Source of the DNA: a virus
Length of the DNA stretch: 64,000 nucleotides
Strand: one strand, 5' to 3'
IMG/VR virus record: IMGVR_UViG_3300021335_000004
This document shows positions 3,742 through 38,414 of this stretch, piece by piece. Positions within the stretch are counted from its first letter, which is position 1; each line of letters opens with the position of its first letter. The position numbers and the translations under genes are program-made. The notes under the pieces were generated by a model. It saw only the letters and a program-made list of their open reading frames with translations. It made no database searches and was not told where the DNA came from.

Positions 3742-3819
3742 CTTACGGCCGGCCGGGGTGCTGGATTTTCCTAATGATTTCAAACAGATAGCAGAACAGC
3801 TGTGACATTTTTGCCACAC
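3733..3819. repeat. intergenic repeat R4
   Basis: TTACAATGACTTA, core CGGCCGGCCGGGG, palindrome TGTGACATTTTTGCCACA. Confidence 0.65.
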
Positions 3820-3916
3820 CAACTAGATAAAATGCGTCCAGAGGCCATTTTGTGCTTGCAATCTGGTTATTTTTACTGTATAACTATATATAAGAATAAC
3901 AAATAAGGAGAAAATC

Positions 3917-7905: not shown

Positions 7906-9063
7906 ATGCCAAAAATTAAAGTATTACGTGGAAACACTTCATCACTCGCAAACTATGCTGGACAATCTGGGGAGATTGCCCTTAACTCAGACACAGGCAA
8001 TATTTATTTCTGGACAAATACTGCAAACGTTTTTTATACTTTTGCAGGAGTACCTGCTGCTCCTGCTGGTGATAGTCCTTTTCAGGGTAGTACTTCTGGG
8101 TATATAATTGGAGGCGTTAGTGCTTATCCACTGTTAAGTGGTAGTAACCAAATACAGAAGTTTGGATTTAGTTCTGGAAGTCCAGCATCTGGAATTGGCA
8201 GTATGGCTGGGCAAGTAGTAGCAGCTGGAGGAGCTTCTTCTGATACGAATGGATATGTTCAAGGAGGTTTTAGAACTAATCCTTATGGTAGCTATAACGC
8301 TAATATAGATAGACATCCTTTTTCTTCAGATTCAAATGGGTCTTTTGTACAAACTTTAGATCCTAGTCCTACAATGCCTTCACCAACGGTAAATCAACAA
8401 CATATGACAGGTTTTCAGTCTTTAAGTACAGGATATGCGTATTGGGGTAGAGGTTCGGGTGAGATAAAAATGCCTTTTTCTTCTGATACTGATGCAGCTA
8501 CCTTTACAGATGATATGGCTAGACAGTATACTCCTAGCCCACTTCAAATAACTTCAACCATGTTATCCGCAGGTGCTACTTCTACTCAAAATAGGTACAA
8601 AGCTGGAGGCTATCAACCAAACACACCTTTTGCAGGATATTTTGGAATACTGAGAAATCCTTTCTCATCAGACGCCTCTATAATTGTTGGAGGATTAACG
8701 TGGCCAGGTTATTATGCGAGTGGTGTATCTGGAGAAACAGCAGGTTATGCAGTGGGTGGAGCGCCTGCGTATAACAACAGCGCGTCAACTCCAAACCCTG
8801 CTTTACAAGAACATGACAACATTCAAAAGTTCTTATTTGCTTCAGACACAGATGCTACTGACGTAGGACAATTGGCACAAACAAGACAACAAGCGACAGG
8901 ATTTTCTAGTACAACTGATGGTTACGTAGCAGGAGGGGTTGTAAGACCTGCAAACACTGCCAAAGATGAGATATACAAATTCCCATTTTCATCTGAATCT
9001 ACTGTTTCCGATCAAGCTGAAATGGTAATAGCTAGATGGTCGATTTCATCAACACAAGTATAA
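7906..9063 (+). CDS. Kelch-like repeat virion/receptor-binding protein
   Basis: Repeats of GYxxGG…IxKFPFSSD; N-terminal GEIALNSDTG anchor. Confidence 0.75.
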   Translation: MPKIKVLRGNTSSLANYAGQSGEIALNSDTGNIYFWTNTANVFYTFAGVPAAPAGDSPFQGSTSGYIIGGVSAYPLLSGSNQIQKFGFSSGSPASGIGSMAGQVVAAGGASSDTNGYVQGGFRTNPYGSYNANIDRHPFSSDSNGSFVQTLDPSPTMPSPTVNQQHMTGFQSLSTGYAYWGRGSGEIKMPFSSDTDAATFTDDMARQYTPSPLQITSTMLSAGATSTQNRYKAGGYQPNTPFAGYFGILRNPFSSDASIIVGGLTWPGYYASGVSGETAGYAVGGAPAYNNSASTPNPALQEHDNIQKFLFASDTDATDVGQLAQTRQQATGFSSTTDGYVAGGVVRPANTAKDEIYKFPFSSESTVSDQAEMVIARWSISSTQV

Positions 9064-9094: not shown

Positions 9095-10495
9095 ATGGCA
9101 GTAATTAAATGGGCAAGAGCCGCTTCATATAATAAAGCAAATACATATCCAGGCGCTAATGGTGAAATAGTGATTGATATAGAGCAGAACCGTCTATTTT
9201 TATATGATGGTGCAAATGCTTATGTCAGTAACACTTTTTTTCAGTCTAATGTTTACATTTCTAGCGGAGCTGCCTCGTTTGACTGGACTAACACTCCTAC
9301 AGAAAGCGTTATACGTGCATCAGATGGACAGGCATCTGATACTTTTGGCTCTGTTTGCCGACTAAGTAAAGATGGTCAATATGCTATTGTTGGTACAACT
9401 GAAGAAGATGGAGGTGCAGGTGACCCAATATCTGGTGCTGGTGCTGCTTATGTCTATGTCAGATCTGGTTCTACTTGGACTCAACAAGCTAAATTAACTG
9501 CATCTGATGCGGCATCAAATGATAAATTTGGTATAGATGTATCAATAAGTCAAGACGGAACTTATGCTGTTGTTGGTTCTCAGTATGGGGGTACAGGATC
9601 TGGAAATGATAATCATGGTGCTGTCTACATTTTTGTAAGATCAGGCACTTCTTGGTCCCAACAACAAAAATTAACGGCGTCAGATGCTTATGAAGGTGCT
9701 CAATTTGGGTATAATGTTGATCTAAATGCTGATGGTTCATATGTTGCAATTAGTGCGCCATATGATACACTAAACAACTTAGGGGCAGTATATGTTTTCA
9801 CAAGATCTGGTTCTACGTGGTCACAACAACAAAAATTAACAGCTTCTAATGCTGGATCAGGTGACGGACTTGGTTTTAGCTGTAGAATTAGTGATGATGG
9901 TGATTATATTGTCGCTTGCGCACCATATGAAGATACAACTGCATCAGATGTGGGTATGGCATATATCTTTACCAGGTCAGGCTCTAGCTGGTCACAACAA
10001 GCCAATTTCCAACATTCAGATGCTCAACTTGAAGATAGACTAGGTTTTGGGACGGATATAAGCGGTGACGGAAACTACGCTATTTGTGGTTCTACTTGGG
10101 AAGATGGTGGGGCAGGCGATCCATTAGACAGAGCTGGTGCTGCTTATGTCTTTTTAAGATCAGGCACTTCGTGGGCACAACAGGCTAAACTAACAGCGTC
10201 AGATGCAAGTTCACCTGCTTCATTTGGGTATCAAGTTTCTATTAGTACTGATGGAACATATGCTCTTGTTGGTACAACCTACAACTATCCTGCTACGGCT
10301 TACCTCTATAAAAGAACTGGAACTTCTTGGTCAGAAGTTAAAAAGTTTACTGAAGGCACAACCGGTAATTCAGGTGATAAATTTGGTTTTGCAGTAGATC
10401 TTAGTGGTGATGGTCAGTTTGCTATTGTAACGGCAATTAATGATAGCACGAATGGTAGTGGTTCTGGAGCAGCTTATATCTACGAAGCAACTTAA
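9095..10495 (+). CDS. FG-GAP repeat beta-propeller protein, paralogue
   Basis: Seven FG…GAAYV repeats; N-terminal GANGEIVID…RLFLYDG anchor. Confidence 0.85.
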   Translation: MAVIKWARAASYNKANTYPGANGEIVIDIEQNRLFLYDGANAYVSNTFFQSNVYISSGAASFDWTNTPTESVIRASDGQASDTFGSVCRLSKDGQYAIVGTTEEDGGAGDPISGAGAAYVYVRSGSTWTQQAKLTASDAASNDKFGIDVSISQDGTYAVVGSQYGGTGSGNDNHGAVYIFVRSGTSWSQQQKLTASDAYEGAQFGYNVDLNADGSYVAISAPYDTLNNLGAVYVFTRSGSTWSQQQKLTASNAGSGDGLGFSCRISDDGDYIVACAPYEDTTASDVGMAYIFTRSGSSWSQQANFQHSDAQLEDRLGFGTDISGDGNYAICGSTWEDGGAGDPLDRAGAAYVFLRSGTSWAQQAKLTASDASSPASFGYQVSISTDGTYALVGTTYNYPATAYLYKRTGTSWSEVKKFTEGTTGNSGDKFGFAVDLSGDGQFAIVTAINDSTNGSGSGAAYIYEAT

Positions 10496-10509: not shown

Positions 10510-10538
10510 TTGACATATTCTAATTATTTTGCTATAAT
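10510..10538 (+). promoter_or_regulatory. perfect sigma70 promoter
   Basis: TTGACA-17-TATAAT with an extended -10 TG. Confidence 0.85.
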
Positions 10539-10577
10539 TTTCTGAAGTGAAATTTTCAGCAAAAGAAAGGAATTGAA

Positions 10578-11420
10578 ATGACACAACTAATATCACCCAC
10601 AAAATTTACTGAAACTGTTGGCCTTTTAAGGTCATTTTTTTTGGAAAAAGGATTCTTAGAAGTCCACACACAAAACAGGCTTTCTATCCTTGCTGCATGT
10701 GAAGATCCATTCAATGTAGCAACATATAACTATGCAGGCAAAGTATGGCCTCTTCCACAAACTGGCCAAATGTGGCTAGAACATGAATTGCTTTCCCAGC
10801 CCTGTTCAAAGGGCTTTTTTTGTGTCTCCACATCATATAGGCAAGAACCTAACGCAATTCCAGGCAGGCATGATATCATCTTTCCAATGTTTGAATTTGA
10901 AATGCCAGGTAGTGTAGATGATCTAAAAGCAATGGAGTATGAACTATGCGAATACTTAGGTTTTGGTAACATTACAGAAAAGACTTATGCTGAATGGCAA
11001 CAACACTTTGAACTAAGTGCTGATACAGAAATGGGAGCAGAACACGAACTTGCAATGGAAAAAGAGTTTGGTCAAACACTTATTACAAACTTCCCTGAAC
11101 TAACATCGCCTTTCTGGAACATGGCTAGAAACGATGACGGCAACACAGCCAAGAAGATGGATGTAATCCTAGGCGGTATGGAAACCATTGGATCAGCAGA
11201 ACGTTCTTGTGATGTTGACATGATGCGCGATACATTCCATAGTATTGTAGACGGGGAGTACGCAGAGTTACTATTCAAACTATTTGGTAAGGAAAGAGTC
11301 GAAGCAGAACTAGAAAAGTTTTTAGAGTTTGACTTTTTTCAAAGAGTAGGAGGAGGCATAGGTATTACACGTATGATTCCTGCACTAGAAAAGCAACAGG
11401 CTTTAGCCCAGGCAGCATAA
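10578..11420 (+). CDS. class IIb aminoacyl-tRNA synthetase catalytic core only (AsnRS/AS-AR-like; no anticodon-binding domain)
   Basis: Motif 1 LRSFFLEKGFLEV, motif 2 SYRQEP…RH…FPMFEFE, ETIGSAER, motif 3 GGGIGITRM; 280 aa. Confidence 0.85.
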   Translation: MTQLISPTKFTETVGLLRSFFLEKGFLEVHTQNRLSILAACEDPFNVATYNYAGKVWPLPQTGQMWLEHELLSQPCSKGFFCVSTSYRQEPNAIPGRHDIIFPMFEFEMPGSVDDLKAMEYELCEYLGFGNITEKTYAEWQQHFELSADTEMGAEHELAMEKEFGQTLITNFPELTSPFWNMARNDDGNTAKKMDVILGGMETIGSAERSCDVDMMRDTFHSIVDGEYAELLFKLFGKERVEAELEKFLEFDFFQRVGGGIGITRMIPALEKQQALAQAA

Positions 11421-11425
11421 CTTAA

Positions 11426-11512
11426 TCTGGGGTGGTGAAATTGGTAGACACGCACGATTGTTTCTCGTGTGCTTGAGATAGTGTGGAGGTTCGAGTCCTT
11501 CCCCCAGAGCCA
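11426..11512 (+). tRNA. atypical tRNA-Asn(GTT) with Leu-type D arm and long variable arm
   Basis: Acceptor TCTGGGG/CCCCAGA-G-CCA; anticodon arm CACGA-TTGTTTC-TCGTG; 15-nt variable region; T arm GGAGG-TTCGAGT-CCTTC. Confidence 0.85.
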
Positions 11513-11522
11513 AAAATAAAAA

Positions 11523-11542
11523 AAGAGGGCGTAAGCCCTCTT
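11523..11542. terminator. hairpin terminator between convergent units
   Basis: AAGAGGGC-GTAA-GCCCTCTT with an A-run on its left. Confidence 0.75.
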
Positions 11543-20505: not shown

Positions 20506-20580
20506 TGGTATCCCGTAGGGGAATCGAACCCCTGTTGCCGCCGTGAAAGGGCGATGTCCTAACCGCTAGACGAACGGGAC
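20506..20580 (-). tRNA. tRNA-Glu(TTC)
   Basis: Cloverleaf, anticodon loop CTTTCAC, CCA encoded. Confidence 0.95.
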
Positions 20581-20832
20581 TTAGTGATAAGTAGTATCAT
20601 CATGTACACTTTCATCTTCAAACTCAAAAGGCTCAACTTGCATAGCATTATCAACTAAGTAGTTCATCATTTTTAGATATTCTTCATCATCATCATGTAT
20701 TGTTCTAAGTAATCTATGACTTATAGCTAACATAACACTCGAAATCAACTCAGCATCGTGTCTTAATAATAATAAGTGCATTGTATCAAATAACTTATCA
20801 AATATTACTCTATGTTCTTTTCTTTTTTTCAT
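20581..20832 (-). CDS. hypothetical protein
   Basis: ORF abutting the tRNA. Confidence 0.55.
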   Translation of the reverse strand: MKKRKEHRVIFDKLFDTMHLLLLRHDAELISSVMLAISHRLLRTIHDDDEEYLKMMNYLVDNAMQVEPFEFEDESVHDDTTYH

Positions 20833-20849
20833 AGCCTACTTAATTAAAA

Positions 20850-21071
20850 TTAGTTAGTAACGAAGACCCATACTACATTATGTTCATGAGAAGTTTGAGT
20901 AAAATTGCCTGCTTTAGTCCAATCAATCTGTGCAAGACTAGTATCATTAGTTCCAAAGTTTGCAATTTCTTGTGTAATTTGTGAACTATGAACAATATTA
21001 TCTGGTACATCATCTTTATTGAGATAATGAGCTCCTGCTGCTAATGCTGCTATAATTGCTAGTACTTCCAT
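20850..21071 (-). CDS. small exported/membrane-anchored protein
   Basis: Hydrophobic N-terminus. Confidence 0.55.
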   Translation of the reverse strand: MEVLAIIAALAAGAHYLNKDDVPDNIVHSSQITQEIANFGTNDTSLAQIDWTKAGNFTQTSHEHNVVWVFVTN

Positions 21072-21216
21072 AGCCTATATTCCTTTCAAAAATTTATACA
21101 TCTGTATGTAAAACATAAATGTTTTAGGATAATTATCGGGGTCAGGTAATCTATCACCATAATAATCTATCATATCAATTATTTGAGCATCTGTCAACAC
21201 GTAATTCCCTTTAAGT

Positions 21217-21292
21217 TGGTACTCGGTGAGGGATTCGAACCCCCGACAAACGCGTTATGAGCACGTGGTTCTAACCGCTGAACTAACCGAGT
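21217..21292 (-). tRNA. tRNA-Met/Ile2(CAT)
   Basis: Anticodon loop CTCATAA; lacks initiator features; CCA. Confidence 0.9.
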
Positions 21293-21297
21293 ATATT

Positions 21298-21373
21298 TGG
21301 CTGGGATAGCAGGACTCGAACCTGCGACAGGGTGATTAACAGTCACCTGCTCTACCAACTGAGCTATATCCCA
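21298..21373 (-). tRNA. tRNA-Asn(GTT), canonical
   Basis: U1-A72, G73, loop CTGTTAA, short variable loop. Confidence 0.95.
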
Positions 21374-21378
21374 ATACT

Positions 21379-21464
21379 TGGTGCCCCCAGCGAGAGTCGA
21401 ACTCGCACGCCGCAGTTGGCCACGGATTTTAAGTCCGTTATGTCTACCATTCCATCACAGGGGC
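21379..21464 (-). tRNA. tRNA-Leu(TAA)
   Basis: Loop CTTAAAA, long variable arm, A73. Confidence 0.95.
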
Positions 21465-21472
21465 TTTTATTT

Positions 21473-21549
21473 TGGAGGGCTACAAGAGAGTCGAACTCCT
21501 GACCTTCTGATTCGTAATCAGATGCTCTATCCAGCTGAGCTAGCAGCCC
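21473..21549 (-). tRNA. tRNA-Arg(ACG)
   Basis: Loop TTACGAA. Confidence 0.95.
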
Positions 21550-21555
21550 TTAATT

Positions 21556-21629
21556 TGGCAGAGGATGTAGGAGTCGAACCCACGCCCGCAGAGTTGGAAC
21601 CTGCTGTGCTACCGTAACACTTATCCCCT
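21556..21629 (-). tRNA. tRNA-Trp(CCA)
   Basis: Loop TTCCAAC, A1-U72, G73. Confidence 0.9.
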
Positions 21630-38261: not shown

Positions 38262-38335
38262 TGGAGCGGCATAGGAGAATCGAACTCCTCTACATAGCTT
38301 GGAAGGCTAGTGCATTACCACTATGCTAATGCCGC
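38262..38335 (-). tRNA. tRNA-Gly(TCC)
   Basis: Loop CTTCCAA, U73, CCA. Confidence 0.95.
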
Positions 38336-38337
38336 AT

Positions 38338-38414
38338 TGGTGACTTCGGAAGGATTCGAACCCTCGACCCACAGCTTAGAAGGCTGTTGCTCTATCCAGC
38401 TGAGCTACGAAGCC
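38338..38414 (-). tRNA. tRNA-Arg(TCT)
   Basis: Loop CTTCTAA, CCA. Confidence 0.95.

Follow-up and report, generated by a model that had tools for sequence, protein, structure and literature searches.

Several paralogues of aminoacyl-tRNA synthetases that lack an anticodon-binding domain are known, among them AsnA, AS-AR, EpmA and HisZ. GluQRS (YadB), a class I protein, and EpmA are truncated synthetases that place an amino acid elsewhere than at the 3' end of a tRNA. Dedicated pairs of a synthetase and an unusual tRNA are also known (PylRS/tRNA-Pyl and SepRS/tRNA-Cys), as are non-canonical long-arm 'allo-tRNAs'. To our knowledge, neither AS-AR nor AsnA is accompanied by a tRNA of its own, and we know of no anticodon-domain-less paralogue acting in pyrimidine synthesis or provided with a private co-evolving tRNA. 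Here we describe a cassette at positions 10510-11542 of a 64,000-nt stretch of viral DNA (IMG/VR record IMGVR_UViG_3300021335_000004; the whole analysed stretch is called the window below), which comes from a marine T4-like cyanomyovirus. The cassette consists of a gene for a 280-aa class IIb catalytic core derived from asparaginyl-tRNA synthetase (AsnRS; 10578-11420, plus strand) and a gene for a non-canonical tRNA(GUU) (11426-11512, plus strand) that starts five bases 3' of the enzyme stop codon. Among isolates, the nearest carriers of the enzyme gene infect Prochlorococcus: phages P-SSM7, P-SSM2 and P-SSM5. Two features of the cassette are new: the pyrimidine-pathway context of the enzyme family, and a private, co-evolving, Leu-shaped tRNA(GUU). 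Gene fusions, gene neighborhoods and missing genes point to a pyrimidine role for the family, and our tentative reading, to which we give a little less than an even chance, is that the enzyme is an ATP-dependent, AsnRS-derived enzyme of the pyrimidine pathway with a dedicated tRNA partner.

The enzyme matches the Pfam family tRNA-synt_2 (E = 3.8e-16, profile positions 28-297 of 308) and contains class II motifs 1-3. An N-terminal OB-fold anticodon-binding domain was found neither in this protein nor anywhere in its family; the class IIb core without an OB fold that the sequence-only reading of the locus had described was upheld. The AlphaFold2 model has a predicted local distance difference test score (pLDDT) of 96.3, and its best Foldseek matches are catalytic domains of AsnRS and aspartyl-tRNA synthetase (AspRS), with E-values down to 3.8e-18 and query-normalised TM-scores up to 0.79. 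The protein falls far below all NCBIfam equivalog cutoffs of the related functions: asnS (35.9 vs 342.6 bits for TIGR00457, 35.2 vs 414 bits for NF003037), AsnA (19.1 vs 389 and 11.7 vs 322 bits), EpmA (17.7 vs 264 and 15 vs 286.9 bits) and, likewise, aspS and lysS. It matches phrog_29758 (function unknown) at 2.5e-128 and belongs to the cyanophage cluster T4-GC194 ('tRNA ligase'), and the protein Atlas goes no further than the annotation 'tRNA ligase family protein, viral'. For P-SSM2 and P-SSM7, T4-GC194 is listed as 'tRNA ligase' in one row of a published table (PMC3037559); beyond this entry, the searchable literature yielded no account of a function for either the enzyme family or the tRNA.

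In a search with the family profile, AsnRS scored best (55.9 bits), followed by archaeal-type AspRS, AS-AR (32.5 bits; PDB 3p8t was matched at E = 4.7e-7) and EpmA (~23 bits). Throughout the family, the arginines of motifs 2 and 3 are conserved, as are the magnesium ligands. Profile alignments with Brugia and human AsnRS and with Entamoeba AspRS demonstrated that the amino acid pocket is of the AsnRS type at two places: the family has the Q..Q..LE signature (QSSQLYLE in AsnRS) rather than the KQ of AspRS (QSPQLYKQ), and E-x-E (VEAE in AsnRS) rather than the AspRS D-x-E (LDIE). Since the side-chain pocket is of this amide type, it suggests asparagine or a close analogue as the substrate. The family shares with canonical AsnRS (PDB 2XTI/2XGT, 1X54, 9SH8, 8H53) the catalytic fold, the motif 2/3 arginines, the magnesium-binding acidic residues and the pocket signatures, but differs from it in the absence of the OB fold, in the family-specific motifs ACEDP and K193, in the pyrimidine gene context and in its co-occurrence with a genuine AsnRS or GatB. 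With AS-AR and bacterial AsnA it has in common a core-only architecture (~280-330 aa), derivation from AsnRS/AspRS and, presumably, the formation of an adenylate that is then attacked by a nitrogen nucleophile; it differs in matching them less well than AsnRS, and in the presence of GatB and of the pyrimidine context in the genomes of the family. GluQRS and EpmA are similar in having lost the anticodon domain, kept adenylation chemistry and gained a new acceptor, but neither of them is known to be associated with pyrimidine genes or with a tRNA of its own, and the enzyme scores just 15-18 bits against EpmA cutoffs of 264-287.

The main evidence for a pyrimidine role comes from relatives outside the cyanophages. 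The family comprises 682 clusters at 50% identity, and most full-length members among the matches listed are ~260-300 aa long. A profile built from a six-sequence alignment and applied to one genome per prokaryotic species retrieved 145 relatives in cellular genomes, in candidate phyla radiation (CPR)/Patescibacteria, DPANN archaea, Midichloriaceae, Rhabdochlamydia, Bdellovibrio-like bacteria, Chitinophagales, Kapabacteria and others; members were also found on giant-virus-like contigs. Two kinds of gene fusion were observed. In P0124, present on seven contigs and 53% identical to the window protein, the enzyme is fused to a dihydroorotate dehydrogenase domain (DHO_dh, PyrD), and in P0141 it is fused to an orotidine monophosphate (OMP) decarboxylase domain (OMPdecase, PyrF). 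The latter fusion was confirmed in a real contig (L183), where the gene order is enzyme-PyrF, a phosphoribosyltransferase (presumably PyrE) and PyrD. The genes that recur within 3.5 kb of the enzyme gene encode OMP decarboxylase, in 12 loci, and dihydroorotate dehydrogenase, in 11, and together account for about 20 of 80 cellular loci in several phyla, mostly non-CPR bacteria; on giant-virus-like contigs, the gene lies beside a PyrE-PyrF-PyrD fusion.

Eleven large or complete genomes carrying the family were surveyed for pyrB, pyrC, pyrD, pyrF, asnS, gatB and asnB. PyrD and PyrF are both encoded in nine of them, PyrB and PyrC both score above cutoff in only three, and type-II PyrC (dihydroorotase) was found in none of the 11. 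Six genomes keep PyrD and PyrF in the absence of PyrB and PyrC, and in all six a pyr gene stands beside the enzyme gene, this being pyrF in five. The possibility that PyrB is not really missing was rejected: the weak pyrB-like matches are carbamoyltransferases of the ornithine/N-acetylornithine type or occur in an argG context. The survey also ruled out two simpler roles. As asnS is present in six genomes and gatB above cutoff in ten, so that each of the 11 has one or the other, the enzyme is not the sole AsnRS of the cell; nor is it the sole asparagine synthetase, as asnB is present in seven.

Two further observations were made on these relatives. In the CPR loci (L099-L131) the enzyme gene belongs to a conserved block with genes for SerRS, an unknown 289-aa protein, a Dus-family flavoenzyme and the DNA polymerase III delta' subunit. 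The closest longer relative, P0121 (L179, 78-1160; 360 aa, 54% identical), requires TGA to be read as tryptophan in the recorded protein, and therefore is a family member in an organism or phage using genetic code 4.

The second component of the cassette, the tRNA, was called Asn (GTT) by ARAGORN and scored 46.7 bits (E = 1.7e-8) with the Rfam tRNA model and 93.5 bits with the family covariance model R1. Direct reading revealed U1-A72, C2-G71, G73 and an encoded CCA on a Leu-like body, which has a 3-bp D stem, the D arm GTGAAATTGGTAGACAC, similar to that of the window's own tRNA-Leu(UAA), and a 15-nt variable arm; the sequence-only reading had given the same account of Asn identity elements on a Leu-like body, placed five nucleotides past the enzyme stop. 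The anticodon loop is UUGUUUC, with U at position 37. Canonical bacterial tRNA-Asn has a variable loop of 4-5 nt and A37, normally modified to N6-threonylcarbamoyladenosine (t6A). Compared with it, the cyanophage partner tRNAs retain GUU, G73 and U1-A72 and lack the class I body and, in most cases, the purine at position 37; compared with tRNA-Leu, they have G73 and GUU instead of the A73 discriminator and a Leu anticodon.

The cassette tRNA is genuine and under selection, with pairing far above chance. When 45 distinct sequences were aligned to a hand-written cloverleaf with 20 stem pairs each, all 900 stem cells formed standard pairs, and in 14 of the 20 pairs both partners had changed; no shuffle out of 500 equalled this, and slid controls paired in 36-63% of cells. 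Automatic calls were unreliable for long-arm versions, which ARAGORN reported as Asp(atc), Glu(ctc), Gly(acc), Asn(att) or Stop(tta), or missed; therefore, direct parsing and the covariance model were used. U1-A72, G73 and G34-U35-U36 are invariant in 45/45 sequences, and CCA is encoded in all partner tRNAs except those of the P-SSM phages. The variable arm of the cyanophage tRNAs always forms a hairpin, of 13-32 nt. Position 37 is U in 33 sequences, C in two and A in ten, and two sequences have C33; thus, the partner tRNA usually lacks the A37 expected in a tRNA decoding ANN codons.

According to published identity rules, the anticodon and G73 constitute the Asn identity set, also for non-discriminating AspRS, while C2-G71 is an anti-determinant for SerRS and G73 for LeuRS and TyrRS; in yeast, t6A37 blocks AspRS (PMC9976931). 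The determinant of bacterial GatCAB is U1-A72 (PMC2811023). Judged by these elements (C2-G71, G73, the anticodon and U1-A72), the partner tRNA would be shut to the three synthetases of long-arm tRNAs, SerRS, LeuRS and TyrRS, and open to the Asn/Asp machinery.

Linkage between the two genes was assessed in both directions. The forward set consisted of 80 IMG/VR loci, with proteins 80-96% identical to that of the window, and three isolates, from which the DNA 3' of the enzyme stop was extracted. The tRNA lies downstream of the enzyme in 77 of the 78 cyanophage loci with a locatable stop, and 76 of these 77 tRNAs, one of them cut by the contig end, begin 4-10 nt past it. The remaining one (L069) is separated from the enzyme by an inserted small open reading frame (ORF) and scores 117 bits with the covariance model; L055 is the only locus of the 78 lacking the tRNA downstream. 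In the reverse test, viral contigs were scanned with a tRNA-only pattern, and the enzyme was immediately upstream in all 76 testable loci, four others having insufficient flanks. The location of the cassette differs among phages, often being inside tRNA clusters. Homologous tRNAs were found in two other phage lineages. In L094 (enzyme 57% identical), the tRNA starts 10 nt past the stop and has GUU, U37 and a short variable region. In L086, a 191-kb contig (enzyme 53% identical), a tRNA missed by ARAGORN (3767-3874) is separated from the enzyme by an extra ORF of 135 aa; its loop, CGGUCAC, has the Asp-type anticodon GUC and G33, along with U1-A72, G73 and a variable arm of ~33 nt. A single origin of all tRNA-linked enzymes was not rejected by the approximately unbiased (AU) test (p = 0.30).

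The linkage extends neither to cells nor to giant-virus-like contigs. The expectation that such a tRNA always follows homologues of the enzyme holds for all but one of the cyanophage loci and fails in cellular genomes, where the special tRNA adjoins the enzyme gene in 0/80 loci. A partner hidden elsewhere in tRNA-less genomes was ruled out for three bacteria and two huge phages by a covariance-model scan, the best hits being ordinary tRNA-Leu at 60-71 bits. In the phylogenetic tree, the enzymes of cyanophages fall into a single compact clade (98% local support), which is nested within members from CPR, Midichloriaceae and giant-virus-like contigs that have no such tRNA. At 66 positions this clade shares a conserved residue (≥85%) with 156 members outside it, and only two positions differ between the two sets, both conservatively (A93 vs P and I169 vs L). 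The cyanophage clade has gained no basic patch; its median net charge is -19 vs about -10 in the relatives.

The pyrimidine reading that we tentatively favor can be laid out as follows. The family would descend from AsnRS, having kept the adenylation and ATP-binding machinery and the amide-type pocket and lost the anticodon domain. In cells and giant-virus-like contigs, it could act in de novo pyrimidine synthesis, standing in for PyrB and PyrC; in the cyanophage, the enzyme would be an auxiliary metabolic gene product boosting nucleotide supply. The copies in cyanophages and in a small number of further phages are joined to a co-evolving tRNA-like partner. Because the invariant elements of this partner are the identity set of the host Asn/Asp machinery and its decoding features are relaxed, the tRNA may be charged by host AsnRS or non-discriminating AspRS (through GUU and G73) together with GatCAB (through U1-A72). 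The charged tRNA might then serve the Asn/Asp-type chemistry of the enzyme as a donor, carrier or effector, rather than being charged by it for translation. In a particular form of this scheme, which we consider very unlikely, asparagine would be converted to dihydroorotate in a tRNA-dependent manner, with no need for either aspartate carbamoyltransferase or dihydroorotase. Here, host non-discriminating AspRS (recognizing GUU/GUC and G73) and GatCAB would build asparagine on the odd tRNA, a scaffold reserved for this purpose and not used in decoding; the core of the enzyme, binding the acceptor end, would take the asparaginyl group and, with ATP and CO2/bicarbonate, via carbamoyl-adenylate, close the ring to give the dihydroorotate used by PyrD. 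In the cellular relatives, free asparagine or housekeeping Asn-tRNA would take the place of the odd tRNA.

A number of observations weigh against the pyrimidine reading. Three of the 11 surveyed genomes have the enzyme in addition to canonical PyrB and PyrC, and in two complete CPR genomes pyrB, pyrC, pyrD and pyrF are all missing though the enzyme is present; because of the latter, the role of the enzyme in CPR may differ. The relatives linked to pyr genes are 47-57% identical to the window protein, which leaves room for a changed function. Support for a pyrimidine role inside cyanophages is thin: no homologue of pyrD, pyrE or pyrF is encoded in the window, no PyrD or PyrF in the complete P-SSM2 and P-SSM7 genomes, and a divergent dihydroorotate dehydrogenase-like gene was found on only one cyanophage contig. 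This cassette-bearing contig (G013; L287, 305-1550, minus strand) encodes a 229-aa protein with 45 bits to Pfam DHO_dh, ~8 kb from the cassette and abutting a gene for an unclassified phosphoribosyltransferase; the remaining phosphoribosyltransferase-type hits in cyanophages are apt and prs, genes of nucleotide salvage. The reaction of the enzyme is itself guessed from genomic context. Finally, the metabolic reading covers the family-wide evidence and leaves the role of the tRNA unaccounted for: a near-obligate tRNA whose anticodon fits the ancestry of the enzyme is not explained by a purely metabolic enzyme, but is predicted if the two form a private pair.

Such an orthogonal pair had been proposed from the sequence of the cassette. 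The core-only enzyme would read the acceptor end (U1-A72, G73) and charge its own tRNA with asparagine, and the phage would decode AAC/AAU independently of host AsnRS or GatCAB, or despite host attack on tRNA-Asn. The parts of the proposal concerning a conserved unit, an AsnRS-type pocket and Asn identity elements have stood: all class II catalytic motifs are intact, the enzyme is nearer to AsnRS than to the tRNA-independent AS-AR or EpmA, the anticodon fits its ancestry, the tRNA body bears anti-determinants against SerRS, LeuRS and TyrRS, and the two-way linkage, the cassette's own promoter and the encoded CCA, as well as a single origin of tRNA-linked enzymes compatible with the AU test, are what a pair would have. 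PylRS/tRNA-Pyl, SepRS/tRNA-Cys and allo-tRNAs are similar in that an enzyme and an atypical tRNA are inherited together and the anticodon does not match the body type. Unlike in these pairs, however, most relatives of the cassette enzyme have no such tRNA and resemble metabolic enzymes, there is no evident sign of recoding, and charging by the enzyme is only a candidate activity. Orthologues with the same 66 residues lack the tRNA, co-occur with AsnRS or GatB and form fusions with PyrD or PyrF; the enzyme contains no module able to select the invariant anticodon, and its clade is unusually acidic; the pyrimidine 37 of 35/45 tRNAs and the C33 and G33 variants should both impair decoding; and a canonical tRNA-Asn is already encoded by the phage. 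Recognition through the long variable arm in the manner of SerRS, also suggested at first, is unlikely because near-identical enzymes (95-96%) are accompanied by arms of 15, 28 or 31 nt, arm length not co-varying with the enzyme. On balance, we regard a private pair as less likely than the pyrimidine reading, but as a serious rival to it.

Another candidate function, which appears improbable to us, is that of an AS-AR-like asparagine synthetase (aspartate + ammonia + ATP), the extra tRNA-Asn raising the capacity to use asparagine. Core-only AsnRS paralogues of similar size are asparagine synthetases, one of which is the matched AS-AR structure, and the amide-type pocket would suit asparagine as a product. 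However, the NCBIfam AsnA models give 12-19 bits against cutoffs of 322-389, asnB is already present in seven of the 11 genomes, and the PyrD/PyrF fusions, the missing PyrB/PyrC and the odd shape of the tRNA would all go unexplained. AsnA-encoding genomes reportedly use AsnRS and not GatCAB (PMC2330236), whereas GatB is found in ten of the 11. The linkage might also be non-catalytic, the tRNA-like RNA being a 3' processing, stability or mobility element of the enzyme mRNA or else a decoy or anti-defence tRNA in its own right, kept with the enzyme gene through proximity alone. The varied sites of the cassette, often within tRNA clusters, the gap of just 4-10 nt, the intervening small ORF tolerated in L069 and the loss of the tRNA in L055 are compatible with this. 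A structural element, however, would not hold G34-U35-U36, G73 and U1-A72 invariant, with CCA kept except in P-SSM phages, amid compensatory changes in the stems, and not one of the 76 testable loci had the tRNA but no enzyme; to both variants taken together we give only a small chance. The rest of the probability, beyond these three explanations and the pyrimidine reading, belongs to something else.

The promoter, the hairpin and the separate canonical tRNA-Asn gene were as the sequence-only reading had them. A perfect sigma-70-type promoter, TTGACA-17-TATAAT with a TG-extended -10 element, is predicted from consensus alone (12/12 matches) at 10510-10538 on the plus strand, and a Shine-Dalgarno-like AAAGGA (10566-10571, plus strand) lies 6 nt 5' of the ATG. 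Downstream of the tRNA there is an 8-bp GC-rich hairpin (11523-11542), whose stem is present on each strand with a better T-run on the minus strand; for this reason, it is probably a bidirectional terminator, ending the convergent minus-strand genes as well as the cassette. The separate canonical tRNA-Asn(GUU), with A37 and a 5-nt variable loop, was confirmed by ARAGORN and direct reading at 21298-21373 (minus strand), ~10 kb from the cassette. In total, eight canonical tRNA genes are encoded on the minus strand of the window, at 20506-21629 (Glu, Met, Asn, Leu, Arg, Trp) and 38262-38414 (Gly, Arg). The plus-strand genes immediately preceding the cassette (7906-9063 and 9095-10495) encode two large proteins with Gly/Ser/Ala-rich repeats, structural or fibre-like in appearance; thus, the cassette sits in a structural region in the window, while in many related contigs it sits within a tRNA cluster. 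Permuted transfer-messenger RNA (tmRNA) genes were called by ARAGORN near the cassette in cyanophage contigs, with tag peptides such as ANDNRAPAMALAA and ANANRAPEMALAA. These calls are on the minus strand in L028 (2028-2414), L039 (2083-2417), L043/L044 (1980-2395), L048 (1135-1470), L049 (1018-1382) and L050 (983-1347), and on the plus strand in L077/L078 (601-983); most are ~100-500 bp upstream of the enzyme gene, those in L048, L077 and L078 being farther away.

The cassette is well defined and only ~1 kb long, which makes either the pyrimidine reading or that of a private pair testable by standard assays. If the two genes do form a pair, they would represent a compact natural anticodon-blind synthetase/tRNA pair, of use in genetic-code engineering. 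If the pyrimidine reading is true, a large family would have replaced two textbook enzymes of pyrimidine synthesis in CPR bacteria, DPANN archaea, intracellular and predatory bacteria, giant-virus-like contigs and very abundant ocean phages, and the 'missing' pyrimidine pathways of reduced genomes would have to be read differently.

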